Source: Escherichia coli (GTDB taxonomy: Bacteria > Pseudomonadota > Gammaproteobacteria > Enterobacterales > Enterobacteriaceae). Taken from it: a stretch of DNA of 64,000 bases. The position numbers and the translations under genes were made by a program. Of this stretch, positions 2,354 to 55,458 are shown piece after piece. Position 1 is the first letter of the stretch. Every line of letters begins with the position of its first letter. Location of the stretch: NCBI RefSeq assembly GCF_048403405.1, contig NZ_CP183129.1, one strand, 5' to 3'. The notes beneath the pieces are model-generated. The model was given only the letters and a program-made list of their open reading frames with translations. It was not told where the DNA came from and did no database searches.

Positions 2354-3460
2354 ATGTCTAAAACACGCGATGATTTCAGCTCAAAAACTGTAAGAGCTCT
2401 AGCACTACGGGCTGGTTATAGGTGCTCATTCCCCGGTTGTAATCAGCTTACAGTTGGCCCCAGTGATGAATCCTTAACATCTATCACAAATATTGGGGTA
2501 GCTGCGCACATTCATGCCGCAGCTCCTGGGCCATTAGCAAGACGATATGATCCTAATCAAACACCAGATGAAAGGAAAGATATAAATAATGGCATCTGGA
2601 TGTGTGTTAATCACAGCGTTGAAATTGATAGAGATGAAATTAGATATACAGCAGAAATTCTTAAAGAAATGAAGAAAGCCCACGAAGAAGAGATTAAAAA
2701 AGAGGTGAGCAATGGTTCTTCATCAACCAAACATAATGATTTCATTGCAATAGGTATAGACATTATCGTTTTCGGAGAGCTTACCGGAATCTCAACCAAT
2801 GAGTGGACTATAAAATTTGCAAACTTCTTTACTGGCGATTTATCTAAGTTAATATCTTTCAACGAAAGATTCCACTCCATCCCTACCGAAGAAAAATTTA
2901 TTCTAGTTAATCAACTTGGTGAGGGGCGTTTGTTATCAGCACCAATAAAATTAAATAAATTACCAGATAGCTATGAAGTAATCGTCCCTGTTGAAATAGA
3001 CACTCCGCGCATCAATTGCAATAGCCTCCCAATGGATTTAGATATTTTCACGACAGGCGATTTATTTGTAAATAGTTCTGGTGATATAGCTACGATATCG
3101 GGGTTTGAAGCTTTACCACAAAAAATATATACTTCCCTTTCCACCATTAGAGGTGAGATTTATTCCCATCCAACATTGGGTTCCAGAATAAGACAGTTCT
3201 TCCATGACTTTGAAGGAACAATGTGGCTAGACAAATTAGTTAAATTAGAAGTTATACGCTTATCTTGTATACCAATTTTTGATTCAATCACAAAAAACAA
3301 ATACACTCCATTACATTGTGTAAAAAATGTCAAAAATATTCGGGTGATACCAACTGAATATAAAGATAGCAAATTACCTATTGAGTTCACCCTTGATATT
3401 GAAGGTTTCGGCATCTGGTCCAAAGAAATAAGTGTTTTCTCACCTAAATACGATGAATAA
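2354..3460 (+). CDS. Cargo protein with N-terminal HNH-like nuclease motif (C-x4-C ... AAHIHAA ... NGIWMCVNHSVEIDRD) and ~250-aa C-terminal region of unknown function
   Basis: ATG at 2354 preceded by AAAGG; 368 aa; low-GC by eye; sits at the P2 Z/fun variable position between G and FI, on the strand opposite to the late genes. Motif assignment is by eye, not by HMM. Confidence 0.6.
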   Translation: MSKTRDDFSSKTVRALALRAGYRCSFPGCNQLTVGPSDESLTSITNIGVAAHIHAAAPGPLARRYDPNQTPDERKDINNGIWMCVNHSVEIDRDEIRYTAEILKEMKKAHEEEIKKEVSNGSSSTKHNDFIAIGIDIIVFGELTGISTNEWTIKFANFFTGDLSKLISFNERFHSIPTEEKFILVNQLGEGRLLSAPIKLNKLPDSYEVIVPVEIDTPRINCNSLPMDLDIFTTGDLFVNSSGDIATISGFEALPQKIYTSLSTIRGEIYSHPTLGSRIRQFFHDFEGTMWLDKLVKLEVIRLSCIPIFDSITKNKYTPLHCVKNVKNIRVIPTEYKDSKLPIEFTLDIEGFGIWSKEISVFSPKYDE

Positions 3461-3983: not shown

Positions 3984-4985
3984 TCAGAATTTGACAGTAG
4001 GAACGGTTGGCCAGATTCTAGCAATAGACTTAAACATAGTCTCCACAATATATTCGAGAACCTCATCATCAGGCTCTTTCATTAATGCTTTTACTTTATT
4101 TATTCTATCCTGAAGTGAAGGGTGAGATTTTGAAAAACCCCAGTTGTTTTTACCTAACATAGTAACGCTGAATAATGCACAGTATATAGAAAGTCTTCTT
4201 TTCCTGCTCACCAACACACGGTCATACATAGACTCTTCACAGTAATTATCTATATGGTCAAGGATGAATTTATTTGCAAACTCATCACATGAGAACTCTT
4301 CATTATGAGCTTGTTCTTGTGTGAATTCATTCATATCATAACTGGTACCTTCCTGCTGATGAATGATATGTCGGACTTCATGCAAAAATGCCCAAGCAGC
4401 AGCAATAATTGCTAATTCAGCTGTTGCTCTTTTAACTGGTTCGATTTTACTGTCAGGCATGGTGCCAGGTTCAGGAATTCCTATTGGTAGTGGTTTTTCA
4501 TCCGGTACCTCATCTTTAGCCGTGTTTTCAAAAGCGCAGATTAACTGTTCAAAGTTTACGAAGTCTGCCGAACTGAAATCAGCAAGTTCTTCCTGTAGCT
4601 CCTCGAGTAAAACATGTAATTCTGACTCGGTTGAGACTAATGATATTTTCTTTGAGTCAAAAAGATCTAAAATAGAATCCCTTTTATCGATAATGTCTTC
4701 AATTTTTTTATTTTGCTCAGTGTTTATTGCTTCGTAGCCCGCCATTGCAGCAAATGTTCCTATCCAGAACGTGCGCAAAACACGATGATTGAAGCGGATA
4801 AATCGATACATCCCCGCATCAAAAATAAATTTACCGTCTGTATGATTATCGCTATGATTTTGGAAGGTCATGTTAAATTTAGACCAGAACTCATCCAGTT
4901 CATTCTGACGCTCTGGAATAGAGGCTAAAAACATTTTTCTTACGCTGTCCTGAACTGTTTTATCTTCATTATGCTCTTCAAACAT
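3984..4985 (-). CDS. Cargo protein with HExxH motif (AWAFLHEVRHIIH), possible zinc metallopeptidase-like protein; acidic N-terminal half
   Basis: ORF 3984..5045; preferred start is ATG at 4985 with GGTGAG upstream (333 aa); alternative TTG at 5045 (353 aa). Convergent with the HNH-like gene; low-GC by eye. Confidence 0.55.
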   Translation of the reverse strand: MFEEHNEDKTVQDSVRKMFLASIPERQNELDEFWSKFNMTFQNHSDNHTDGKFIFDAGMYRFIRFNHRVLRTFWIGTFAAMAGYEAINTEQNKKIEDIIDKRDSILDLFDSKKISLVSTESELHVLLEELQEELADFSSADFVNFEQLICAFENTAKDEVPDEKPLPIGIPEPGTMPDSKIEPVKRATAELAIIAAAWAFLHEVRHIIHQQEGTSYDMNEFTQEQAHNEEFSCDEFANKFILDHIDNYCEESMYDRVLVSRKRRLSIYCALFSVTMLGKNNWGFSKSHPSLQDRINKVKALMKEPDDEVLEYIVETMFKSIARIWPTVPTVKF

Positions 4986-10340: not shown

Positions 10341-11126
10341 ATGGTCAGCTATAATGTGACTAATGTGTGGGGGCTAATCGTTTTTTTCCTTTGTAGCTTT
10401 GCAGTATTAGCATTTTTTAGCTTTGGTAAAAGTAACCTTATGAGGCTTATTGCACATTATTTCAATTTTGGATATTCAGACAAAAAATTAAAAAGACTTG
10501 ACCGCGAGTGGCGCGACATTCAACTATTTAAAATAATTAATGGAATCAATGTATCAGGCATTGAAAATGTGAGAATGATACAGCAGGGACTGATTGATGG
10601 AAAACTAAAAACATCGTATTTTTTCCTTACTCGCATCTGGGGTGACATAACAAAACCACCACACATAATTAAAACAATAATTGTAATTCTGGCCAGTATT
10701 TTTTACATTCTCCTCGCATGTTACATACACAACGAACAATCCGTTATAGTAAGGGATGCCATAGGCATACCATATAAAAACATGATGTACTATGTTTATA
10801 GTGACAAAGTTCTTTTATCCTTCAAAAATAAAGCAGTTGAATTTAATAAAACTTATAGCCTTGCCGATTGCAAGAGACTGCAAAACGTATTTATAAAAGA
10901 CACACTTCCTGAGATCGCCTGCAATAAGCTCTTACAGCTAAACGAGGAGGACTCCGAATGGTTAAGCCAGGAGATTAAAGATAATAACAGTCACAAAAAA
11001 GCATTATTAATACTATCCCTCGTCTATTTCACTTCAGGTCTGGTTATATTCCTGTCATATACAAAATTCTTTTACGCCAATAAGAAGGTTTTAGAATACA
11101 AAGCATCAAATAAAAATCACTCATAA
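10341..11126 (+). CDS. Cargo membrane protein with three hydrophobic segments, at the P2 orf30 position; function unknown
   Basis: ATG at 10341 with AAGGAG 7 nt upstream; 261 aa; hydrophobic helices near residues 9-28, ~110-130 and ~222-241; strongly AT-rich by eye; opposite strand to flanking late genes; followed by a 12-bp-stem hairpin. Confidence 0.6.
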   Translation: MVSYNVTNVWGLIVFFLCSFAVLAFFSFGKSNLMRLIAHYFNFGYSDKKLKRLDREWRDIQLFKIINGINVSGIENVRMIQQGLIDGKLKTSYFFLTRIWGDITKPPHIIKTIIVILASIFYILLACYIHNEQSVIVRDAIGIPYKNMMYYVYSDKVLLSFKNKAVEFNKTYSLADCKRLQNVFIKDTLPEIACNKLLQLNEEDSEWLSQEIKDNNSHKKALLILSLVYFTSGLVIFLSYTKFFYANKKVLEYKASNKNHS

Positions 11127-14664: not shown

Positions 14665-15408
14665 TTAACTGGCTTTCTTTTTCGGGCGTCCACGTTTTGC
14701 CGGTGTCACGCTCCGGGTCTTACGCGGGGCGCGGGTGGCCGCTTTGGGCTGCGGCTCCGGCTTCGGTTTCAGCTCCCGCTCCAGTCGTTCAATCTCTTTT
14801 TTGACGCCTGCCTGACAGTCGAGCTGTGTCGCACGTTGCAGGTGCGCCAGCGCGCCGGCGGCATCACCAGCGTCACGCAGAAACAGACCGGTGATTTTGT
14901 GCAGCTTTGCGCGCACTTCATCAGGCATGTCAGCCGTGGCGGTCAGTTCAAGGGTGTCCGTCAGCAGGCGGGGATCCACAGACTCACCGGCAGCGTGAGC
15001 GCGCATGGCCGCAAGCGCCACCTCCTCGGTGAACATGTACGGCGGGGTGCGGCGGTGTTTCCCCGGCATGGTCAGACCATACTTCAGGGCATAACGGGCA
15101 ATCTCCAGCGCACCGGCAATATCGCCGGTATCCAGACGCCACAGCATGACCGTCATCAGAATGTCATCCTGTGCACCTTTGCCCTGCTCCAGCACGCCGT
15201 TCACCCACGGCAACCAGAACGGCAGCAGTTCGCGTTTTTTCGCGGCCTTCAGCTCTTTTGAATAAATCGCTTTCAGTGTGCGCTGGTCTGCGGCCAGCTT
15301 GACCAGCATCTGCTCATAGACAGTTGCATGTCGCAGCGGGGCGGCTTCCCGCTGCGCGGTCATCGCTGCCGAGACCCGCATCATGTGGCGCTGTGCGGGA
15401 CTCGTCAT
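14665..15408 (-). CDS. M: Terminase small (endonuclease) subunit gpM
   Basis: 247 aa, P2 order. Confidence 0.9.
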   Translation of the reverse strand: MTSPAQRHMMRVSAAMTAQREAAPLRHATVYEQMLVKLAADQRTLKAIYSKELKAAKKRELLPFWLPWVNGVLEQGKGAQDDILMTVMLWRLDTGDIAGALEIARYALKYGLTMPGKHRRTPPYMFTEEVALAAMRAHAAGESVDPRLLTDTLELTATADMPDEVRAKLHKITGLFLRDAGDAAGALAHLQRATQLDCQAGVKKEIERLERELKPKPEPQPKAATRAPRKTRSVTPAKRGRPKKKAS

Positions 15409-17571: not shown

Positions 17572-19344
17572 ATGACCATCACCACAGACACCACTCTTTT
17601 ACACGACCCGCGTCGTCAGGCGGCGCTGCTGTACTGGCAGGGGTTTTCCGTGCCGCAGATTGCCGCCATGTTGCAGATGAAACGCCCGACGGTGCAGAGC
17701 TGGAAACAGCGCGACGGCTGGGACAGCGTTGCCCCCATCAGCCGTGTCGAAATGAGTCTGGAAGCGCGGCTGACCCAGCTCATCATCAAACCGCAGAAAA
17801 CCGGCGGTGACTTCAAGGAAATTGACCTGCTGGGACGCCAGATTGAACGACTGGCACGGGTCAACCGCTACAGCCAGACCGGCAACGAGGCAGACCTTAA
17901 TCCGAACGTCGCTAACCGCAACAAAGGCGGGCGGCGCAAACCGAAAAAGAATTTTTTCAGTGACGAGGCCATCGAAAAGCTGGAGCAGATTTTCTTTGAG
18001 CAGTCTTTCGAATATCAGTTGCACTGGTATCGCGCCGGGCTTGAGCACCGCATCCGCGATATCCTGAAATCCCGCCAGATTGGCGCGACGTTTTATTTTT
18101 CCCGCGAGGCGCTGCTGCGCGCCCTGAAAACCGGTCATAACCAGATTTTTCTGTCGGCCAGTAAAACGCAGGCGTATGTGTTCCGCGAATACATCATCGC
18201 CTTTGCCCGTCTGGTTGACGTTGACCTGACCGGTGACCCGATTGTCCTGGGCAATAACGGCGCAAAACTGATTTTTCTCGGCACCAACTCCAACACCGCG
18301 CAGAGCCATAACGGCGACCTGTACGTCGACGAGATTTTCTGGATCCCGAATTTTCAGGTACTGCGTAAGGTGGCATCAGGTATGGCCTCACAGAGTCACC
18401 TGCGCTCGACCTATTTCTCCACCCCGTCCACGCTGGCACACGACGCCTACCCGTTCTGGTCGGGTGAACTGTTCAACCGGGGACGCGCCAGCGCCGCCGA
18501 ACGCGTGGAAATCGACGTCAGTCATAACGCCCTTGCCGGTGGGCTTCTCTGTGCGGACGGCCAGTGGCGACAGATTGTCACCATTGAGGACGCCCTGAAA
18601 GGCGGCTGCACGCTGTTCGACATTGAGCAGCTCAAACGCGAAAACAGCGCCGACGATTTTAAAAACCTGTTCATGTGTGAATTTGTTGACGACAAGGCGT
18701 CGGTGTTCCCGTTTGAGGAGCTGCAACGCTGCATGGTCGACACGCTGGAAGAATGGGAAGACTATGCGCCGTTTGCCGCAAATCCGTTCGGCTCCCGACC
18801 GGTATGGATTGGTTACGACCCGTCACACCGTGGCGACAGCGCAGGATGCGTGGTACTGGCACCGCCGGTGGTGGCCGGTGGCAAATTCAGGATCCTTGAG
18901 CGTCACCAGTGGAAAGGCATGGACTTTGCCACTCAGGCTGAATCCATCCGCAAACTCACCGAAAAATACAACGTCGAATACATCGGTATTGATGCCACCG
19001 GCCTCGGTGTCGGCGTGTTCCAGCTCGTGCGCTCGTTCTATCCCGCCGCGCGCGACATCCGCTACACGCCGGAAATGAAAACCGCAATGGTGCTCAAGGC
19101 AAAAGACGTCATCCGCCGTGGCTGTCTGGAATATGACGTCAGCGCCACCGACATCACCAGCTCGTTTATGGCTATCCGCAAGACCATGACCAGCAGCGGA
19201 CGCAGCGCCACCTATGAGGCCAGCCGCAGCGAGGAAGCCAGCCACGCCGACCTCGCCTGGGCGACCATGCACGCCCTGTTAAATGAGCCACTCACCGCCG
19301 GTATCAGCACCCCGCTGACATCCACCATTCTGGAGTTTTACTGA
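17572..19344 (+). CDS. P: Terminase large (ATPase) subunit gpP
   Basis: ATG at 17572 (MTITTDTTLL...), ~590 aa. Confidence 0.9.
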   Translation: MTITTDTTLLHDPRRQAALLYWQGFSVPQIAAMLQMKRPTVQSWKQRDGWDSVAPISRVEMSLEARLTQLIIKPQKTGGDFKEIDLLGRQIERLARVNRYSQTGNEADLNPNVANRNKGGRRKPKKNFFSDEAIEKLEQIFFEQSFEYQLHWYRAGLEHRIRDILKSRQIGATFYFSREALLRALKTGHNQIFLSASKTQAYVFREYIIAFARLVDVDLTGDPIVLGNNGAKLIFLGTNSNTAQSHNGDLYVDEIFWIPNFQVLRKVASGMASQSHLRSTYFSTPSTLAHDAYPFWSGELFNRGRASAAERVEIDVSHNALAGGLLCADGQWRQIVTIEDALKGGCTLFDIEQLKRENSADDFKNLFMCEFVDDKASVFPFEELQRCMVDTLEEWEDYAPFAANPFGSRPVWIGYDPSHRGDSAGCVVLAPPVVAGGKFRILERHQWKGMDFATQAESIRKLTEKYNVEYIGIDATGLGVGVFQLVRSFYPAARDIRYTPEMKTAMVLKAKDVIRRGCLEYDVSATDITSSFMAIRKTMTSSGRSATYEASRSEEASHADLAWATMHALLNEPLTAGISTPLTSTILEFY

Positions 19345-20363
19345 TGAGCAAGAAAAAAGGGAAAACACCGCAACCTGCGGCAAAAAAAATGACCGCCAGC
19401 GCCCCGAAAATGGAGGCATTCACCTTTGGCGAGCCGGTGCCGGTACTCGACCGCCGTGACATTCTGGATTACGTCGAGTGCATCAGTAACGGCAGATGGT
19501 ATGAGCCGCCGGTCAGCTTTACCGGTCTGGCGAAAAGCCTGCGTGCTGCCGTGCATCACAGCTCGCCGATTTACGTCAAACGCAATATTCTGGCCTCGAC
19601 ATTTATCCCGCATCCGTGGCTTTCCCAGCAGGATTTCAGCCGCTTTGTGCTGGATTTTCTGGTGTTCGGTAATGCGTTTCTGGAAAAGCGTTACAGCACC
19701 ACCGGTAAGGTCATCAGACTGGAAACCTCACCGGCAAAATATACCCGCCGTGGCGTGGAGGAGGATGTTTACTGGTGGGTGCCGTCCTTCAACGAGCCGA
19801 CAGCCTTCGCGCCCGGCTCCGTGTTTCACCTGCTGGAGCCGGATATCAATCAGGAGCTGTACGGCCTGCCGGAATATCTCAGCGCCCTTAACTCTGCCTG
19901 GCTGAATGAGTCGGCCACGCTGTTCCGCCGCAAGTATTACGAAAACGGCGCTCATGCCGGATACATCATGTATGTCACCGATGCCGTGCAGGATCGCAAC
20001 GATATCGAAATGCTTCGCGAAAACATGGTGAAGTCGAAAGGCCGCAACAACTTTAAAAACCTGTTTCTCTATGCCCCACAGGGGAAAGCCGACGGCATTA
20101 AAATTATCCCCCTCAGTGAAGTGGCGACGAAGGACGATTTTTTTAATATCAAAAAAGTCAGCGCCGCAGATCTCCTGGACGCACACCGCATCCCCTTTCA
20201 GTTGATGGGCGGTAAGCCGGAGAATGTCGGGTCACTAGGAGATATTGAAAAAGTGGCAAAGGTCTTTGTCCGCAATGAACTCACTCCATTACAGGAGAGA
20301 ATAAAGTCAATAAATGAATGGTTAGATATGGAAGTCATAAAATCCCTTGATTATAACTTATAA
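19344..20363 (+). CDS. Q: Portal protein gpQ
   Basis: 339 aa, ATGA overlap with P stop; last ~100 bp look AT-rich. Confidence 0.9.
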   Translation: MSKKKGKTPQPAAKKMTASAPKMEAFTFGEPVPVLDRRDILDYVECISNGRWYEPPVSFTGLAKSLRAAVHHSSPIYVKRNILASTFIPHPWLSQQDFSRFVLDFLVFGNAFLEKRYSTTGKVIRLETSPAKYTRRGVEEDVYWWVPSFNEPTAFAPGSVFHLLEPDINQELYGLPEYLSALNSAWLNESATLFRRKYYENGAHAGYIMYVTDAVQDRNDIEMLRENMVKSKGRNNFKNLFLYAPQGKADGIKIIPLSEVATKDDFFNIKKVSAADLLDAHRIPFQLMGGKPENVGSLGDIEKVAKVFVRNELTPLQERIKSINEWLDMEVIKSLDYNL

Positions 20364-20375
20364 GTAAATATATAA

Positions 20376-20402
20376 AGTTGGCGGAATGCAATCCCGCCAA
20401 CT
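20376..20402. terminator. Hairpin AGTTGGCGG-AATGCAATC-CCGCCAACT between convergent Q and cargo operon; likely bidirectional terminator
   Basis: 9-bp perfect stem read from the sequence in the 42-bp gap between the stop codons. Confidence 0.6.
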
Positions 20403-20405
20403 TAA

Positions 20406-21113
20406 CTATATATACTTCCTTTTTACTCTACTTAATTCTATCACTGATGAGGAGTGACAAAATGACAAATTAATAGTATCGATATAATCCAAAATTTGAC
20501 TCTCAACCTCAATAAAAATATTTTTGGGCCCATTACTAATCGATATACCGATTTCATCCAAAACAGCCATCATTTTTCTCTGATGAGTTTTATATTTATA
20601 GTCTTTATTTTCCTCTGTAATATGTGCATTGGCTTCCTCAATAACACATTTGATTCTAGATATTATTTCTAGATAATCTCTCGAAACAGATATATCACCG
20701 CCTTGCGCTTCAGGGAACATAACCCTATACCATCTAAAAAAATTAACTTTCTCTGGATAGATGCTACTTCTTTTAGTTAACTCAGCACTTGCAAATTCTC
20801 TAAACATCGTCAGATGACTAGTGTAATTACTATTATTATTATTTTTAACTCCAGCGTTATATGTCATCAAAGCAATCATAACACCAAAAACGGTAACAAA
20901 AGTTGTTATAAGCCATCCAAACGCCTGAAAATACATTACTATACCAGATGTTTTTTCCGCAAAAAATTTTAAGCACTGGCTATCGAAGCATATATCACGC
21001 TCATATAGCTTTTCATTCTGAATAGTTTCAAAAAGAGAAATTAGCGAAAAAATCAAAAAAAGAGCTGACGACACACCGACAATATATTTGAGAAGTCTAA
21101 TATTTGCATTCAT
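20406..21113 (-). CDS. Cargo protein with two N-terminal transmembrane helices, translationally coupled to the upstream reverse transcriptase; candidate effector
   Basis: ATG at 21113 overlaps RT stop (ATGA); 235 aa; hydrophobic segments IVGVSSALFLIFSLISLF and GIVMYFQAFGWLITTFVTVFGVMIALMTY; AT-rich by eye. Confidence 0.65.
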   Translation of the reverse strand: MNANIRLLKYIVGVSSALFLIFSLISLFETIQNEKLYERDICFDSQCLKFFAEKTSGIVMYFQAFGWLITTFVTVFGVMIALMTYNAGVKNNNNSNYTSHLTMFREFASAELTKRSSIYPEKVNFFRWYRVMFPEAQGGDISVSRDYLEIISRIKCVIEEANAHITEENKDYKYKTHQRKMMAVLDEIGISISNGPKNIFIEVESQILDYIDTINLSFCHSSSVIELSRVKRKYI

Positions 21114-22336
21114 AATGGTTTTAAAGATGCCAATCTAGATTTAAAACACTCCAGTTTTTCTTTAAATGATTCAGAGCGAGTAAGAATAATCATCTTATAT
21201 CTCGTCAAATCATATTTTCTTTTATACCAATGTTTATTTTGATTACCTTTCGAATACGACAACTCTAAACTTTTTATAGCTGCATCAATCACAGCAACAT
21301 CTCTTTTAGATGGCATCGGTTTTATTGCCTGCAACTGTTTCTTGAATGATTCATATTTTTCATGCCCAACACGGCCAAGCTTATTCACTCTCCCCATACA
21401 TCTATTGAATTCTTTTCTGTATGCAACACTTGTTTTTGTGTTATTTTTTGCCGCCAGTAATTTCAAATTATGTATAGATGCCCTGATTCTTTTGACTTCA
21501 TCGGATGGTAGTCGAGGTGAGTCATAGTCAACTCTTAAACCATGTACTTTTATAGGTTCAGATGAACAGTGAAATATTTTTGTTTTGTGCTTATTTATCG
21601 GCAAGTCATGCTCAGAAAGCATCCTCTCTATATGGCTTTGCATTTGAGAAAAATCATAATTACTTATTTTAGATGACACGGTAATATCATCTACCAAACG
21701 CGTATAAACAAGTCCTTTCCTCTGCGCACGTCTTACCACATCCCCTTCAACAGCGAATAAACACAAAGTTGCTATATAGCTTGATGTTAAGGCCCCCTGT
21801 ACGACAAAATCATCCTTAGTACATATATCCACCAAGTATTCAAGAGCCTCATCCTTAATATGCAATATCTCCTCAAACACGCTCCTAACCAGATCTCTAT
21901 GGATATTATCGAAAAAATTACTTATATCCACCTTGAGAACTGTTTTTGCTCCACAATGAGCCTTTGCACATGAAACATAGTCACGTTTGACATTAGAATT
22001 TAAAACATCATTTTTACTGGGAACTGAACCAAACAAAAATGAAGGAAAAACAACCAATTCCTTAAAAATACGTTTATTAATTCTACTCTGTAATAATCTC
22101 ATTTTAGGATGTAGGGAGTAGACAATCCGTTTGCTTCCGTCAATTTTGGGAATTTCTTTTAGAGTATATTTCTCATCTAATGATAATTCTGCAATAGCTT
22201 TAAGCTCTTCAACAGAAATCGATAAAGCCTTTGACAACTTTTCAAGTGTTGTGATAGGAGCATTGGATTTGCTGTATGGTTTAAATTTATCCATAAACAT
22301 ACCATTCAAATTCAAAGTTACGTACGGTCTTCCCAT
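21110..22336 (-). CDS. Reverse transcriptase (retron-like or Abi-type), defence-associated candidate
   Basis: RT motifs in the translation: IPKIDGSKRIVY (fingers), VLKVDISNFFDNI (motif A), QGALTSSYIA (motif B-like), YTRLVDDITVSS (YxDD; DNA ~21671-21706), and KVHGLRVDYD resembling the retron VTG region. Start uncertain: ATG candidates at 22336, 22300, 22294; the supplied ORF extends to a TTG at 22384. Confidence 0.8.
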   Translation of the reverse strand: MGRPYVTLNLNGMFMDKFKPYSKSNAPITTLEKLSKALSISVEELKAIAELSLDEKYTLKEIPKIDGSKRIVYSLHPKMRLLQSRINKRIFKELVVFPSFLFGSVPSKNDVLNSNVKRDYVSCAKAHCGAKTVLKVDISNFFDNIHRDLVRSVFEEILHIKDEALEYLVDICTKDDFVVQGALTSSYIATLCLFAVEGDVVRRAQRKGLVYTRLVDDITVSSKISNYDFSQMQSHIERMLSEHDLPINKHKTKIFHCSSEPIKVHGLRVDYDSPRLPSDEVKRIRASIHNLKLLAAKNNTKTSVAYRKEFNRCMGRVNKLGRVGHEKYESFKKQLQAIKPMPSKRDVAVIDAAIKSLELSYSKGNQNKHWYKRKYDLTRYKMIILTRSESFKEKLECFKSRLASLKPL

Positions 22337-22625
22337 ACTCAAGGGTGGAACAGCAGAGATGCTTACATCAACAATTGTCAGCAACAGCCTCTGCTATCTT
22401 TCGACCGTACGTAATGTCGTCGGCTACGGCACCATCGTAGTTGACGACGGTGGGGCCTCGCTGATAGGTCCATAGTGGACGCTTTTTTGTAAAAGCAAAA
22501 ACTGACAATTTAATGTTGTTGACTGCCGCATACCAAGCGAATCGCTGGTGCGCTAAGAATAATGCAACAAAAAAATAAGAATTTCAACCGGGTAACTGCA
22601 AGCCAGCGACATCGTTTAGCGCGCA

Positions 22626-22644
22626 GTGCTTTCCCCGCCTCGCC
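22626..22644 (-). other. cos: cos cohesive-end site (19 nt, GGCGAGGCGGGGAAAGCAC on the minus strand)
   Basis: Exact match to the P2 cohesive-end sequence as remembered; embedded in a locally GC-rich noncoding stretch between the RT gene and the 612-aa gene. Confidence 0.75.
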
Positions 22645-22805
22645 CGCCCGCTTCGTGGGGCGGTTTTAATGCAGGTGCAATACCGCTTTTGAGCCACGCC
22701 CGTCCTGGCGGACGCACGGCCGGAACATGCAACTCCGGCACATGCAAAACCATGCACATATTGCACGCAGAAAGATAAATGCCAAAATACCTAAATCAAC
22801 TTCCA

Positions 22806-24644
22806 TTAATCAGCCAGATAAGGTTCAACTTTATCTTCCCATACACTAAATAAAGGCAAACAAGTTAAATAAAAGATAAAGACACAGGCAAAAACTGAAG
22901 TTGGTTGATAACAATGATTTACAGTATACCTGCCATGAGCCATCGTGTGTCTAATTGCAGCACCACCTTTCATATTGAACAATAAATCCATAGTCAATAC
23001 ATGATCACTATCAAAAACACCTTCCATTTCACTCCTATAATTTGCAAGCATTTGAGATAGGCTAGTAGCCTCCTCAAAAAGCGACACATCTATTTTCGTT
23101 GTTTCTTTTCTTCTTAATTCTAAAATCCATCTAATTGAATTCTCCAATTGCGGCAATAACAAATAACAGGCAGACACATAATCTCCCTGCCAAAGCTTAT
23201 AAAACCCCAAAGAAAATATTTCTGCATACCCAGGTGGAACAAATGCACTTTGTTGTGAGATTGGGTCAAATGTATTTTCATTTAATGAATACCTAGCCAA
23301 CACACTTTGCCTAACGACTTCAAACTCACCACAAACATAGACCTGATGCTCAATGTTACTAGTTCTTAAATAATTTGCACAAGCATCATTTAAACTTATA
23401 TCCCCCGCAGGATCCAAAGGTGAACGACTTGCTACAACGCGCCCTCTATCATCATAAACAACCGTTTCACTCATATTAAGAAAAAAATGTTTTTTAGCAT
23501 CGGAACGAGCTCTTTCCATAATTTCACTGGCACTTACAATCTTAAATCTAGCAATTAAAGTTTTAATTACCCTTGAGAAATCCAATTGATTATAAACATG
23601 CTCTTTCTGAGCGATAACATCACTAAGATCCATTGGTATTGCAAAGAAGTGCATTTCATCATTGATTTGATCTCGAATAGAATTCAATTCCTCTCTAATC
23701 TTTTTAATTTCTTCATTCATTCCACCAATTGCTCTAAATTCGCCAAGAGCAACTCTTAACCAATGAGCCTTCAATATTGAAGATGAAGACTGTTCAAATT
23801 GAGCCAATGTTATTTCTGACGCTTTAATTCTGCACCGTCTTCCTTGCTCTTCCATATCGTTTTTAACATATAATTCAGACGCAAAATAAAACAATTTTTT
23901 CACTGCATCAAAATAAGACGCTCCACAATGCTCATCAGCTATCTTTTCTGCATTCTCAGCCAATTGCAAGGGACACAATAAATTATTCTTATAAAGAATT
24001 TCAGAAACTCTTAATACACCGGTGAATATACCAGAGTCTATTAATACATGATATAACCTTAATGTCGAATCAACTATCCCCCCTTGTAGTTGTTTTTTCC
24101 TGCCAATAAGCATGCGCGATATTGCGATACCTCTATCCAAGCAGTCAACAACATCAAAAATATGGATATCACCTGACTCTTGTTTTTCTATTAAAGTATC
24201 GCAAGCATCATTAACCATTAGAGAATATGACTCTATTGCTTTATTGGCAGAGTCTATATCCTTACGGTTATTTATCCATAAAACATCACACACCCTAGAT
24301 ATAATATAAGGATTATCGGAGTTTTCTTTAATACAAGTTAATATTGTTGAAAAACTCTCCTTATAATCTGAAGGCCTATAGCCCCTCTCAGGATAGAGAA
24401 TGATTTTTGGCTCAAAACCGATAATATCACCAGACCTAGAAAATTTAAAATTAAACAACGCACGTAATAAATAGCAAAGCCGCCAAGAACTTACATCGTT
24501 TTTTAGCTTGTAAGATGACAACAACTGAACAAAATAAGACTCCATATCAAAATGAGAATAACTTCTTGGCGATGATAATATACTGGCGTATTCACTTTTT
24601 TTAAAATCATCAACTGAAATAGAAAAAACATCAAACTCGCTCAT
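22806..24644 (-). CDS. Cargo protein of unknown function (612 aa) with C-terminal HEPN-like R-x4-H motif (AIRHTMAHGRY); candidate abortive-infection RNase
   Basis: ATG at 24644 with GGTGAGGA upstream; no P-loop seen; AT-rich by eye; occupies the P2 tin/old position between A and cos. The HEPN call rests on one short motif. Confidence 0.6.
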   Translation of the reverse strand: MSEFDVFSISVDDFKKSEYASILSSPRSYSHFDMESYFVQLLSSYKLKNDVSSWRLCYLLRALFNFKFSRSGDIIGFEPKIILYPERGYRPSDYKESFSTILTCIKENSDNPYIISRVCDVLWINNRKDIDSANKAIESYSLMVNDACDTLIEKQESGDIHIFDVVDCLDRGIAISRMLIGRKKQLQGGIVDSTLRLYHVLIDSGIFTGVLRVSEILYKNNLLCPLQLAENAEKIADEHCGASYFDAVKKLFYFASELYVKNDMEEQGRRCRIKASEITLAQFEQSSSSILKAHWLRVALGEFRAIGGMNEEIKKIREELNSIRDQINDEMHFFAIPMDLSDVIAQKEHVYNQLDFSRVIKTLIARFKIVSASEIMERARSDAKKHFFLNMSETVVYDDRGRVVASRSPLDPAGDISLNDACANYLRTSNIEHQVYVCGEFEVVRQSVLARYSLNENTFDPISQQSAFVPPGYAEIFSLGFYKLWQGDYVSACYLLLPQLENSIRWILELRRKETTKIDVSLFEEATSLSQMLANYRSEMEGVFDSDHVLTMDLLFNMKGGAAIRHTMAHGRYTVNHCYQPTSVFACVFIFYLTCLPLFSVWEDKVEPYLAD

Positions 24645-24797: not shown

Positions 24798-27083
24798 TTA
24801 TGTCCACTCCATTACTGTTGAGAATCCCGGCCACTCATCAATGACCGGATACGTGAATTTTTTCCCGCCATAATTTATGGTCGCTCCCCGAGCCAGCGCC
24901 TCAAGCTCCCATCGCTGTGGCCTGATACCGTTCTGAGCAAGGTCAACGCGGATACGGGTAATTTGCATTCGTTCCGACCGGGTCAGTCTGGCCGATGGCG
25001 CTATTTCATGCGGTTTTAACGGGCTTCCGTTTCTTTGCTGACGGTTTGGTCTTCTCAGACCGTGTTTTAATGCACCTCTGAGCGCCCTCACGACCTCCTG
25101 GTCATTCCATTCGATAACACCGTCATCTACCAGATTAAGCACTGCTACGGCGTGTTCAGAAGGCGTGGGAGCCGGTGACGAAGTATCACCACCGGTGAGC
25201 TTTCCACAGTTATTGACAGGACTCCGAGGCGCGGCGATGCCGCTTTTTAAAGTCAACGGCTCAACGACCGGAACTTTCGGCACAATGCGCCAGTCCGTCG
25301 TTCTGGTGATATGAATATGACGCGTGCCGAGATGCGGCGCGTAAATGCCGACCACTCTCTCGACTTCTTCCTCGTACTCGTTAACGTCATCCGACGGGCT
25401 ACGGGCGACCCTGACAGTCTGACAATCGCGCGGGACATTTGCCCCGCCCTGCGCGCTGATATACAACGCAAAATCACCACTGTCTGCGGCGGCGCGTGCA
25501 GCCTCGACGCGTTCGTCAAACTCATCAGCAATGCTGACGCCGCGAGGCAATTTGCGTAGTTCACGGTAAGCCCCCATTGTCGGCAGGCCAACCGTTTTAA
25601 ATTGCGGGATACGCCACGTTGACGCCCATGCGGTAACAGCCGCTGCAGTGTCTTTCAGCGGCCTGCCGGTATCGTTATCGAGCTGACCATCCAGTGCATA
25701 GCCGTCGATATTTTTTGAGATGTATTTCGCGATATATCCCGCAGCACCGCCCCGGTTAAGGTGTTTCGCCTGAAAACGGTTTCGCGCGGCTCCTCTTTCG
25801 TCGCCATCCTCTTTGAGCGCATAGCGACGCATGATTTCGATAATCTGGTTACGCTGGCGTGGATTACAAAAAAGCATCATATGCCAGTGCGGCGTTCCGT
25901 CGTGGTGTGGCTCGACGACTCGCAAACCGTAGACCTGTAAATCATTATCCTTGAATGCCGTGCGCATCAGGCTCCAGATACGGCAGAGATAACGCTGCGC
26001 ATCCTTCGGATTAAATGCCTCATCATTCCAGCCGTGATTAAGCTGCACGGTTTTACTTTCTCCTTTTCCGACCTGACGTGTCGGGTGATACTTTGACGGC
26101 GCGGTCAGCGTGATAAACATCCCCACATCACCCTCTGCGGCGGCGTAACGCTCAATACCGGCGATGGTGTTCATCAGCTCCATCCGGCGAATTTCAGGAT
26201 TAGAAATACTGCCCATCACCTTACTGATAAGGTCGATGCGCTCGCCGGTTTCCCTGTTTTCGAGGTCACACGATTTAAGAAATTCCAGATTTGCCTGGCG
26301 GCGTGCACGCACATCACGAATGGCGTGTTTACTGGCATAAGGAGAACGATCTTTATTGACCTCCCCGACAGCAATCAGTAACGCCTCATGCCAGCGCATA
26401 CGCTGGCCTTTAAGCTGATGAGTCCACCACTCATCGTTAAACAGGCGGGCAATGGCAGAATATGCCTGCCTCGTGGTCATCTGTCCTTTACGGTATTTTT
26501 TCCAGTAGAGCGGGGAAATATTGAAAGCACGTGCAGCGCCAGCAACATGACTATACAGGTGAGCCTGCGCCTCATCCGTAAACAGCGATTCTTTTTCGCC
26601 ATGCGCATCCACCCAGGCATCGCTGAGTTCCTCATACATCATGAAAAGCTGCGATGAGATACGGGCGGCAAACTTTTTCAGCTCCTTGTCATTCATTCCA
26701 GGCAGGCGCGCATAGTGGTCACGCTCTGCCAGAAACAGCAACGACGCGTCGGTGTTCATTTCATGGCGCTGATTCACGCGCTCAATGCGCGGCCATAAAC
26801 GACGCTGAAAAGTGGATGTGAGGAAATAAAACCCGTGTACCGGGCTTTTATTGCGCCGGATGTAGTCATAGCGTGAAGTAAACAGCGAGCGCAAAAAGTA
26901 AGGCAGGCGGTTAATCGTGGATAAAACCCCTTGCACCTGACGCATCTCGTCACGTGTAAGGGGTCTTTCGCGCCCGACGGCCTCGCGTGGCGCGTTCCAT
27001 GCATAAGCACCGGTAAACGTCTTACCGGTGCCTGCGGCAAATGCTGACGGAGGGACAAAACGCCCGGAGGCTTTAACGGCCAT
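24798..27083 (-). CDS. A: Replication initiation protein gpA (rolling-circle nickase)
   Basis: ATG at 27083 (MAVKASGRFVPPSAFAAGTGK...), 761 aa; the supplied ORF extends to an upstream TTG. Confidence 0.9.
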   Translation of the reverse strand: MAVKASGRFVPPSAFAAGTGKTFTGAYAWNAPREAVGRERPLTRDEMRQVQGVLSTINRLPYFLRSLFTSRYDYIRRNKSPVHGFYFLTSTFQRRLWPRIERVNQRHEMNTDASLLFLAERDHYARLPGMNDKELKKFAARISSQLFMMYEELSDAWVDAHGEKESLFTDEAQAHLYSHVAGAARAFNISPLYWKKYRKGQMTTRQAYSAIARLFNDEWWTHQLKGQRMRWHEALLIAVGEVNKDRSPYASKHAIRDVRARRQANLEFLKSCDLENRETGERIDLISKVMGSISNPEIRRMELMNTIAGIERYAAAEGDVGMFITLTAPSKYHPTRQVGKGESKTVQLNHGWNDEAFNPKDAQRYLCRIWSLMRTAFKDNDLQVYGLRVVEPHHDGTPHWHMMLFCNPRQRNQIIEIMRRYALKEDGDERGAARNRFQAKHLNRGGAAGYIAKYISKNIDGYALDGQLDNDTGRPLKDTAAAVTAWASTWRIPQFKTVGLPTMGAYRELRKLPRGVSIADEFDERVEAARAAADSGDFALYISAQGGANVPRDCQTVRVARSPSDDVNEYEEEVERVVGIYAPHLGTRHIHITRTTDWRIVPKVPVVEPLTLKSGIAAPRSPVNNCGKLTGGDTSSPAPTPSEHAVAVLNLVDDGVIEWNDQEVVRALRGALKHGLRRPNRQQRNGSPLKPHEIAPSARLTRSERMQITRIRVDLAQNGIRPQRWELEALARGATINYGGKKFTYPVIDEWPGFSTVMEWT

Positions 27084-30729: not shown

Positions 30730-31527
30730 ATGAGTAATTTAACTAATTGTAATACAACAGAAAATACCGCTACGGCGGGGGCTACCAAGTCAGTTATTGG
30801 TCGCATTCACTCCTTTGAATCCTGTGGAACCGTAGACGGCCCGGGTATTCGCTTTATCACCTTTTTCCAGGGCTGCCTGATGCGCTGCCTGTATTGTCAT
30901 AACCGCGACACCTGGGACACGCATGGCGGTAAAGAAGTTACCGTTGAAGATTTAATGAAAGAGGTGGTGACCTATCGCCACTTTATGAACGCTTCCGGCG
31001 GCGGCGTTACCGCATCCGGCGGTGAAGCAATCCTGCAAGCTGAGTTTGTTCGTGACTGGTTCCGCGCCTGCAAAAAAGAAGGCATTCATACCTGTCTGGA
31101 CACCAACGGTTTTGTTCGTCGTTACGATCCGGTGATTGATGAACTGCTGGAAGTAACCGACCTGGTAATGCTCGATCTCAAACAGATGAACGACGAGATC
31201 CACCAAAATCTGGTTGGAGTTTCAAACCACCGCACGCTGGAGTTCGCCAAATATCTGGCGAACAAAAATGTGAAGGTGTGGATCCGCTACGTTGTTGTCC
31301 CAGGCTGGTCTGACGATGACGATTCAGCGCATCGCCTCGGTGAATTTACCCGTGATATGGGCAACGTTGAGAAAATCGAGCTTCTCCCCTACCACGAACT
31401 TGGCAAACACAAATGGGTGGCGATGGGTGAAGAATACAAACTTGATGGTGTTAAACCACCGAAGAAAGAGACCATGGAACGCGTGAAAGGCATTCTTGAG
31501 CAGTACGGTCATAAGGTAATGTTCTAA
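30730..31527 (+). CDS. pflA: Pyruvate formate-lyase activating enzyme, with prophage-junction-derived N-terminal extension
   Basis: From residue 21 ([22 protein letters not shown]..., radical-SAM CxxxCxxC) it matches E. coli PflA as remembered; the canonical ATG is AAG here and the frame opens at an upstream ATG (30730). Confidence 0.9.
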
Positions 31528-33376: not shown

Positions 33377-34525
33377 TTACACGTGAGCAACGGGTTTCGG
33401 CGTATGACCGGCGTTGCGAAGCAGCATCAGCAAATAGATAAACGATACGCTGGCGATCATGATAAACAATAAATTATCGGAGAAATTCTGCATTAGCATG
33501 GCAGTAAATGACGGGCCAAGCAGACTTCCCACGGTATAGCTCAACAGTAAGGCCTGGTTCATCGCCACCAGTTGATGATGTTCAACTTTCTCGCAAGCCC
33601 ATGCCATCGCCACCGGATATAGCGTAAAGCCAGCGGCACCGAGGATGAATAACGCTGGGGCCATCGCCGCCTGGCTAAGCATCGCGATACTGCCGAGAAT
33701 GACGACAAAGACCTGAACACGCAACACCAGCAGTCGACCAAACTTATCCGCCAGACGTCCAATCGGCCATTGTCCAAGGATACCCGCACTGACCAGTACC
33801 GCCATCCAGAAACCAATGCTGGCATTGCTCACCCCTTTGTGATTGAGGTACAGCGGCATCAGGCCATATAGAGATCCCAGAACGATTCCTGAGATAATGC
33901 AGCCATTCACGCCAAGCCGCGCCTGACGGAGTTTTAGCATTGACGTAATTGACGTCGCATCATGGTTTTCAGCCTGCTGATTCAGCACACGCGTAAACAA
34001 CAACGGTAAGATCCCTGCCAACGTCAAACCTGTAACCCACGGCAATACGGACATCAGCTCGGTTGAAACTTTGCTGACCAGTAACTGGCCTAAAAACGTT
34101 CCCACGTAATAAACCATCATATACGCAGCAAGCAAACGCCCACGGTTACGTGACGTCCCACTGCACATCAGCGCGCTCTCAACAACCACCCAAATCATGG
34201 CACAGCCGACGCCGGCGACAAAACGCCAAGCCAACCAGCTCCAGAATCCAATCATTAGACCAAGGCCGGCACAGCCAGCGGCAAAAATGAAGGAGGCCAG
34301 ATAATAGCTGCGGTTAAAGCCAATGCGCTTAATGACATACCCTGTCAGCAATGTACCGACCAGGTTGCCGGTAAAATAGGATGAGCTGACAACGCCTACC
34401 TGCCATGTGGACATGTGTTCCTGGGCGAGCCAAAGCGGTACGAGTGTATTTAACACTGCGATCGCCAGAGTCAACAAAAGCAGGCCAGACAGCAAAAGCA
34501 TGACAGGCCGGGTATACGTGGACAT
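33377..34525 (-). CDS. ycaD: MFS transporter YcaD
   Basis: 382 aa, multiple TM helices. Confidence 0.8.
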
Positions 34526-39439: not shown

Positions 39440-39609
39440 AATGGCTCACTCAAGCTTGCTCACGATTGATTCCAGTAACAAACCGTATTGTGTAATTATT
39501 TCTATAGCAGGTCGCTATATAGGCTTGTATACATCGAATAATTTGAAAATCAAAGAGATAGGTAGATTTTCACTCGAAAGTAGTATTACGTGTAAGTGAG
39601 GAGTAATTA

Positions 39610-39623
39610 TTGTTCGGTATCAA
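39610..39623 (-). promoter_or_regulatory. FNR-like binding site TTGATACCGAACAA upstream of dmsA
   Basis: Minus-strand sequence matches the FNR half-site pattern TTGAT-N4-ATCAA with one deviation; dmsABC is FNR-activated (established knowledge). Confidence 0.5.
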
Positions 39624-39631
39624 AGGGAGAC

Positions 39632-39660
39632 AAAAAAAGCGCCCGCAGGCGCTTTTTAGA
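39632..39660 (-). terminator. Rho-independent terminator after serS
   Basis: Hairpin AAGCGCC-TGCG-GGCGCTT with flanking T-run on the minus strand. Confidence 0.7.
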
Positions 39661-39677
39661 TTCAGAAAAATTGGGTA

Positions 39678-54489: not shown

Positions 54490-54577
54490 GGTGAGGTGTC
54501 CGAGTGGCTGAAGGAGCACGCCTGGAAAGTGTGTATACGGCAACGTATCGGGGGTTCGAATCCCCCCCTCACCGCCA
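54490..54577 (+). tRNA. serW: tRNA-Ser (anticodon GGA), long variable arm
   Basis: GGTGAGGTGTCCGAGTGGCTGAAGGAGCACGCCTGGAAAGTGTGTATACGGCAACGTATCGGGGGTTCGAATCCCCCCCTCACCGCCA; T-loop GGTTCGAATCC; position between infA and clpA. Confidence 0.85.
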
Positions 54578-55115
54578 TATTTAAAGAAAAGCTCGTACGA
54601 AAGTGCGAGCTTTTTTTTTCGCATATTGCACTCCAGGGGGGATGAGAAGCCCCGACCGGGGTTCGACAACTGGCGCAGCCAGTTGGACAGACCACGAACA
54701 CAGTGAGTGGGCTGCCCGCAGGGCGAGCGAAGCGAGTCAATCCCCCCCTCACCGCCATATTCAAAGAAGAGCTCGTACGAAAGTGCGAGCTTTTTTTTCG
54801 CATATTGCACTCCAGGGGGGATGAGAAGCCCCGACCGGGGTTCGACAACTGGCGCAGCCAGTTGGACAGACCACGAACACAGTGAGTGGGCTGCCCGCAG
54901 GGCGAGCGAAGCGAGTCTATCCCCCCCTCACCGCCATATTTAAAGAAAAGCTCGTACGAAAGTGCGAGCTTTTTTTTCGCATATTGCACTCCAGGGGGGA
55001 TGAGAAGCCCCGACCGGGGTTCGACAACTGGCGCAGCCAGTTGGACAGACCACGAACGCAGTGAGTGGGCTGCCCGCAGGGCGAGCGAAGCGAGTCTATC
55101 CCCCCCTCACCGCCA
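54578..55115 (+). repeat. Three tandem direct repeats of ~179 bp (54578-54757, 54758-54936, 54937-55115) plus a degenerating fourth start; each unit has the terminator hairpin and ends with a copy of the tRNA-Ser 3-prime end (AATCCCCCCCTCACCGCCA)
   Basis: Near-identical units read directly from the sequence; occasional single-base differences between copies. Confidence 0.85.
54590..54620 (+). terminator. Terminator hairpin immediately after serW (first of four near-identical copies)
   Basis: AGCTCGTAC-GAAA-GTGCGAGCT followed by a T-run of 8-9. Confidence 0.7.
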
Positions 55116-55458
55116 TATTCAAAGAAGAGCTCGTACGAAAGTACGAGTTTTTTTTCGCATTTTATCTGCCTGTACGGCAGTAAACGGTATAAAAATCGGG
55201 TTTTTCTTTCGGCTGGCTTTCTAAGCTGCCTGTACGGCAGTGAACTCAAATACTACACGTCTAGCCCGTTGTTAATAAAGCAAAACCATCTCATTTTCCT
55301 GCTACCACCCTTTTTTATCCTTACCTTCCCGCAGCACTAATTATCAACAACTTACCATCATCATCAAAAAAAGGGTCTGAACCTCCTCCACCCCATAAAC
55401 AAAAAGTCCGTAACCTCTTTCGAGATTACGGACTTCACCAACCTACCTAACAATTAGA

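Follow-up and report, generated by a model that had tools for sequence, protein, structure and literature searches.

The cos region of a P2-like prophage in Escherichia coli: conserved core, right-end flank and adjacent retron cargo

The terminase of phage P2 prefers monomeric circles over concatemers. The cos of phage lambda (cosQ-cosN-cosB), a staggered-cut nick site with an asymmetric flank recognised by the small terminase subunit, is analogous to the site described here, although its sequence and terminase family are unrelated and its overhang is 12 nt rather than 19 nt. Two studies (PMC9594776, citing Ziermann and Calendar, 1990; PMC9122126) describe a 55-bp cos as the only homology between P2 and P4, and longer cos flanks raised cosmid transduction ∼10^4-fold (PMC9594776). 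According to Dodd and Egan (1996), as summarised in PMC6868368, the stretch from cos to the packaging-operon terminator has given way to the retrons Ec67 and Ec86 in 186-related prophages. More generally, the cos-proximal interval between gpA and gpQ is a hotspot of anti-phage defence systems, retrons included (Rousset et al., 2022; PMC9122126). The P2 cos, the cos-proximal hotspot, retrons beside cos, Retron-Ec48 and ORF612 are already known.

We analysed a 64,000-nt stretch of an E. coli genome (NZ_CP183129.1), hereafter the window. Positions 22618-22775 are very probably the cos site of a P2-like prophage (genus Peduovirus) that is complete and has inserted into pflA.

The cohesive end and the cos core

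The original prediction, based on the letters of the window, placed a P2-type cos 19-mer on the minus strand of a GC-rich non-coding stretch. This was confirmed. GGCGAGGCGGGGAAAGCAC occurs once in the 64-kb window, at 22626-22644 on the minus strand, and no second site was found there even with up to three mismatches (chance expectation 0.01). G+C content reaches 0.62-0.68 over about 22600-22760 as against 0.28-0.45 on either side, and the stretch lies in an intergenic gap from 22295 (the start of the RefSeq reverse transcriptase, RT) to 22805. The sequence is indeed that of P2: GGCGAGGCGGGGAAAGCAC matches 19/19 both the 'cosL; left cohesive end' (1-19) and the 'cosR' (33575-33593) annotated in P2 NC_001895. 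In their linear records, the Yersinia phages L-413C and P37 start or end precisely at window position 22626. We infer that the terminase cleaves at 22626-22644, the 19-nt cohesive end being the stretch between its two staggered nicks.

For comparison, 116 further cos regions (108 unique sequences) were collected from IMG/VR with a search pattern that was fixed only from -23 to +18. The cohesive end follows the family pattern GGCG(A/T)GGCGGGGAAAGCA(C/T); 88 of these 116 regions carried the P2-type 19-mer and 27 the 186-type. Around the 19-mer lies a core of a 29-bp right-end flank and a 7-8 bp left-end flank (22618-22673), with the layout TGCATTAAAACCGCCCC..GAAGCGGGCG / 19-mer / TGCGCGCT. The comparison with the left and right ends of P2 that had been proposed as a check came out in its favor: the circularised P2 junction aligned over 56 bp with 54 identities, and the flank beyond aligned with the P2 right end. 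Both differences fall in a naturally polymorphic tetranucleotide (CATG at 40 sites, CATA at 33, CACG at 13, CGTG at 10 and CGCA at 5); the window has CACG, as do 13 of the 116 other cos sites. The core block is common to P4, 186, pro147 and five E. coli prophages, and blastn detected it in 2434 of 5426 complete E. coli genomes.

As in P2, cos is placed between the portal gene Q (19344-20363) and the replication gene A (24798-27083), and an identical 4.4-kb arrangement of the cos region is found in five complete genomes. With the 19-mer, the ∼55-bp core, the Q-A location and cognate gpM and gpP, the site is a cos of the P2/P4/186 type (Peduoviridae). It shares with P2 (NC_001895; Ziermann and Calendar, 1990) the 19-mer, 54/56 positions of the core, the placement between Q and the right-end accessory genes, and a near-identical terminase. 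It differs in that a retron takes the place of P2 nt 28-268, that ORF612 takes the place of old, tin and orf91, and that its right flank belongs to the GC-rich 186/P4-like type, whereas that of P2 is the AT-rich old-promoter region.

Prophage integrity and cargo beside cos

The prophage runs in reverse of the standard P2 map. From left to right the window contains FII, FI and the cargo of the Z/fun site, then G, H, I, J, W, V, orf30, S, R, the lysis genes, X, L, M, N and O, with the block from G to O entirely on the minus strand. These are followed by P and Q (plus strand), the retron cassette, cos, ORF612, A, orf83-80, B, orf78 and cox (minus strand), and finally C and int (plus strand). Because the window starts inside the tail gene E, it leaves E, T, U, D, ogr and attL beyond its edge. 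All of these are present and intact in E. coli MS 69-1, whose sequence deviates at 3 nt across a 32-kb overlap and in which no pseudogene is flagged.

The prophage is 35,623 bp long between 13-bp direct repeats, GTCAGTTATTGGT. A script located the insertion in codons 2-6 of pflA (30730-31527, plus strand), with the att core at 30789-30801. The phage end supplies PflA with a new in-frame N-terminus of 20 aa; in the rebuilt gene, both the start and the region before it thus come from the phage. Elsewhere in the chromosomal part, Rfam matches at gathering level were obtained for the sRNA STnc130 (39530-39664, plus), an 85-nt tRNA (54490-54574, plus), RtT (54621-54757, plus) and a single isolated CRISPR-DR4-like repeat (55218-55245, minus).

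All 42 P2 proteins were used as queries in tblastn. All essential P2 genes were full length at 90-100% identity, except for int, C, cox and the C-terminus of H. No frameshift or truncation, which had been named as a possible objection, was seen in an essential gene; the impression of intact phage genes held, the off-window E, T, U, D and ogr being covered by MS 69-1. The products of int, C and cox are 53, 48, and 40% identical to those of P2 and represent a different immunity/integration module. The receptor-binding C-terminus of gpH has diverged from P2. A local BLAST HSP had given the impression that gpH matched at its C-terminus only; this was rejected, as an ungapped comparison together with tblastn indicated a P2-like and intact protein, with the first 400 aa 98.5% identical to P2 H and 98.8% overall identity to H of pro147. 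In the same tblastn search fun, orf91, tin and old were absent, and other cargo was present instead.

The packaging proteins are closely related to those of P2. The small terminase (endonuclease) subunit gpM (14665-15408, minus) matches P2 M over 247/247 aa at 98.4% identity, and the large (ATPase) subunit gpP (17572-19344, plus; Pfam Terminase_6N/6C/Terminase_5) matches P2 P over 590/590 aa at 99.8%. The portal protein gpQ (19344-20363, plus; 339 aa; Pfam Phage_portal) is 95.6% identical to P2 Q, with its C-terminal ∼27 aa diverged at the cassette junction. The replication endonuclease gpA (24798-27083, minus; Pfam Phage_GPA), which bounds the hotspot, is 97.4% identical to P2 A over 761/761 aa.

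Homology to P2 ends at 20296 and restarts at 22618. The 2,321 bp in between (20297-22617, minus) are a Retron-Eco6 (Ec48, type IV) cassette that stands in for P2 nt 28-268 (241 bp), a segment of non-coding left-end DNA together with tQ and the final codons of Q. The cassette begins 8 bp from the cohesive end. It encodes a type IV RT (21110-22294, minus; PADLOC RT_IV, E=1e-176) and a 2TM effector (20406-21113, minus; PADLOC 2TM_IV, E=4e-85; RefSeq 'retron Ec48 family effector membrane protein'), and it contains a strong terminator-like hairpin at 20375-20403. Upstream of the RT, the published Eco6 ncRNA (PMC10849725, supplementary file 3) maps from 22573 to 22388 (minus) with 0 mismatches and 3 gaps, which we attribute to machine reading of the PDF. 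This msr-msd gene occupies the AT-richer part of the gap that also holds cos, no more than ∼50 bp from the 19-mer; its fold z-score is -1.98. A retron-clade RT, an adjacent two-TM effector and a cognate upstream msr-msd identify the cassette by sequence as a type IV retron, and production of a 48-nt msDNA has been reported for Eco6 constructs (PMC8989520). The msd hairpin is probably the 13-bp inverted repeat 22416-28/22436-48.

Other retron features were proposed and discarded. A 12-nt inverted repeat (22601-22612/22414-22425) was supported by folding as the a1/a2 stem; it was rejected because the published Eco6 ncRNA, the form employed for RT-DNA production, begins at 22573 and lacks the left arm, and because the right arm belongs to the msd hairpin as one of its two arms. 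The idea of a retron promoter overlapping cos was dropped with it. A second a1/a2 guess (22543-51/22429-37) was unsupported, and TTGAAA-17-CATTAT (22587-22559) is a consensus match only, from which the start would fall inside the published ncRNA. In the pro147 record KR073660, the 2TM effector (22204-22911) is annotated as 'alkylated DNA repair protein AlkB' and a 38-aa 'hypothetical protein' (24157-24273) is placed on the strand opposite the retron ncRNA; neither annotation is likely to be right.

The position of the cassette beside cos mirrors that of Ec67 and Ec86 (Dodd and Egan, 1996, as summarised in PMC6868368), with ∼180 bp reported as replaced there and 241 bp of P2 here. The window differs in carrying a type IV retron (Ec48, with its 2TM effector) on a backbone of the P2 rather than the 186 type.

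On the other side of cos, ORF612 (612 aa; 22806-24644, minus) takes the place of P2 old/tin, with orf91 also replaced. It matches Pfam DUF7380, phrog_5183 and, in PADLOC, PDC-S39 (E=2e-68), a candidate defence family, and it corresponds to an earlier deposit, 'P2-EC46 proviral ORF612' (AM157366). The gpA-gpQ interval is an instance of the hotspot of Rousset et al. (2022), with variable anti-phage cargo, here on both sides of cos, and no essential difference from their description (PMC9122126). At the Z/fun site, between FI and G, fun(Z) is replaced by genes for a DUF2634/sheath-initiator-like protein (2354-3460, plus) and a Lit-family (Peptidase_U49) phage-exclusion protein (3984-4985, minus). 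An orf30 homologue (10341-11126, plus) is 99.6% identical to P2 orf30 and absent from pro147.

Packaging competence and release

A close relative documented as phage particles is pro147 (KR073660/NC_028896). It has the same att ends, a backbone 97-98% identical that includes A, B, cox, C and int, the same gpH, the Retron-Ec48 cassette, the cos core, the 19-mer and the left junction. It differs from the window at three cargo positions (right of cos, the Z/fun site and the lack of orf30), and its similarity to the window breaks at 22674, inside the cos flank. Pro147 came as a plaque-forming myovirus from a culture treated with mitomycin C, and its sequence was obtained from phage preparations (PMC5285337). 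A viable phage can hence have these cos, terminase and immunity modules, with a retron only 8 bp away from cos. Packaging of the 35.6-kb prophage is plausible on these grounds, and the viability of a relative that shares backbone, immunity module, retron and cos supports it.

The original prediction went further and suggested that the prophage may be inducible, for which we found no support. SOS induction by mitomycin C or UV is not predicted, because a Tum antirepressor of the kind found in 186 and the E. coli HS prophage and a LexA box were both missing: tblastn with 186 Tum gave nothing significant (best E of 0.023 over 25 aa), no canonical LexA box was found, and the 103-aa repressor C is HTH-only. 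Phage P2 is a classical non-inducible phage, and mitomycin or UV treatment may give only spontaneous release. Induction of the P2-like prophage of E. coli HS required tum (PMC11195241). The plaques of pro147 were obtained after mitomycin C, and at least low-level release therefore occurs in that phage.

It is also conceivable, if unlikely, that cos is intact and yet no infectious particles are made, the prophage having been recently immobilised, for example by an overlong genome or the lack of derepression. Three fully loaded cargo sites may push the genome past the capacity of the P2 capsid: at 35,623 bp it is 106% of P2 (33,593 bp) and 2.9 kb longer than pro147 (32,675 bp), and P2-like phage records with the same capsid module span 28.9-33.8 kb among the 60 of 123 that were listed. 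The missing Tum and LexA box point the same way, and larger genome size helped to block P2 progeny in one study (PMC9942202). Against this reading, all essential genes are intact, the same 4.4-kb cos-region arrangement recurs in five complete genomes, and release is documented for pro147, which shares the immunity module (PMC5285337). The size difference is itself small. P2-size capsids accept P4 trimers of ∼34.9 kb, and 35.6 kb is only ∼2% beyond that load. We favor a cos site that serves a plausibly packaging-competent prophage.

The GC-rich stretch and the extended right-end flank

Homology to P2-type phages does not stop at the core. On the right-end side only, ∼100 bp more were aligned (window 22674-22775), so that positions 22618-22775 as a whole align with the right ends of P2, 186, and P4. 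This extended flank (22645-22775) makes up the bulk of the GC-rich stretch. It holds six TGCA in 116 bp, a number reached by 0 of 20,000 shuffles, at -29, -35, -87, -102, -112, and -121 from the cut; all offsets except -87 are repeated (±3 nt) in P2, P4, 186 and E. coli prophages. A conservation profile was computed over the 108 unique IMG/VR cos regions, and motifs were counted over 117 cos regions. A distal motif ∼100-113 bp from the cut, GTGCATGGTTTTGCATG (22741-22757, minus; GTGCAT-N5/6-TGCAT), was present with at most one mismatch in 110 of the 117, mostly at -112, and its columns are at least 95% conserved though unforced by the search pattern. The proximal motif TTGCACCTGCATT (22668-22680, minus; -36 to -24; TGCA(a/c)CTGCATT) is likewise at least 95% conserved outside the forced pattern, and so is TGCGCGC at +20 to +26 in the IMG/VR cos regions. 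Between the distal motif and the core there is a GC-rich inverted repeat (22700-22720) whose sequence varies with lineage; its palindromic character persists. It cannot be essential, because the P2 reference itself has diverged in part of the extended flank.

Two other readings of this flank were considered and rejected. The megablast boundary at 22672 had the appearance of a recombination breakpoint and is the end of a 2.2-kb PCR-derived record, AM157366. Blastn (80 genomes) and the varied neighbours had suggested a rare, cargo-linked GC element at 22680-22760; multiple alignment with P2, P4, 186 and the 108 IMG/VR cos regions identified it as the diverged extended cos flank.

The original prediction had also cautioned that the GC-rich stretch could be mistaken for a gene of a structured ncRNA and is mostly packaging region. 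For this stretch the caution was justified; it overlooked, in the same gap, the real msr-msd of Retron-Eco6. We judge it very improbable that the GC-rich stretch specifies, wholly or in part, a structured RNA (an sRNA, a part of the retron ncRNA or a terminator) rather than a packaging signal. It lies between ORF612 and the retron, which share a strand, and hairpin-forming inverted repeats of differing sequence occupy equivalent positions in P4, 186, and the window. A terminator scan returned CCGCCCGCTTCGTGGGGCGG TTTTAATGCA, an intrinsic-terminator-like G+C hairpin with a TTTT run behind it (22644-22663, plus), which overlaps the nick site. On the other hand, positions 22618-22775 matched no Rfam family at the gathering or a permissive threshold, their fold was no better than that of shuffles (z -0.29 and -0.88), and RNAalifold gave no consensus structure for the inverted-repeat region. 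The published retron ncRNA maps elsewhere, at 22388-22573, and the block is kept in P4 and in prophages with neither retron nor ORF612, which fits a terminase site. We concluded that the GC-rich stretch is mostly packaging region and should not be annotated as an RNA gene. The hairpin at the nick site has a 6-bp G+C stem before TTTTAAT, and across P2, P4, and 186 the stem is conserved and the loop variable; as a putative terminator it might stop transcripts that arrive from the P-Q side before they cross cos. That the 19-mer is a chance or relic match with no packaging role is a formal possibility only, effectively refuted by the expectation of 0.01 even with three mismatches allowed, the conserved flanks and the syntenic position.

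For the packaging site, the following course is proposed. After excision and replication, the terminase of gpM and gpP (98-100% identical to that of P2) would recognise 22618-22775, nick twice, 19 nt apart, at 22626-22644 to leave 5′-protruding cohesive ends, and thread one genome length through the gpQ portal into the procapsid. Recognition would apparently be one-sided, with ∼130 bp conserved at the right end vs. 7-8 bp at the left; the conserved right-end elements are the TGCA-containing repeats, the GC inverted repeat and the GC hairpin at the nick. The distal motif and the GC inverted repeat are candidate terminase-binding elements, and the former, if not already functionally mapped, is a candidate cosB-like binding site for gpM.

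We suggest tentatively that cos of P2, 186, and P4 is strongly one-sided in general, with recognition on a right-end module of ∼130 bp and only 7-8 bp on the left. It is possible, with similar reserve, that this module consists of the TGCA repeats at about -29, -35, -102, -112, and -121 together with the GC inverted repeat. One-sided recognition would explain how a 2.3-kb retron came to lie 8 bp from the cohesive end without loss of cos. The one-sided architecture of an extended cos is only a mildly new angle, which the deletion analysis of 1990 may already cover, and the locus as a whole adds no new biology beyond Ziermann and Calendar (1990), Dodd and Egan (1996) and Rousset et al. (2022). 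For annotation, the 511-bp 'intergenic' gap resolves into the retron ncRNA, the cos core and the extended cos flank.

The prophage keeps both the cis-acting signal and the enzymes needed for packaging. Its cargo, namely Retron-Eco6/Ec48, ORF612/PDC-S39 and the Lit-family gene at the Z/fun site, could in principle move horizontally, and a P4-like satellite could exploit the same terminase. In the proposed scheme cos would be a small conserved backbone segment between swappable cassettes, with Retron-Eco6/Ec48 on the left and ORF612/PDC-S39 on the right. If the one-sided reading is true, the asymmetry would turn the left cohesive end into a permissive landing pad for retrons and similar cargo, and cos would act as a recombination anchor between two independently swapping defence cassettes.
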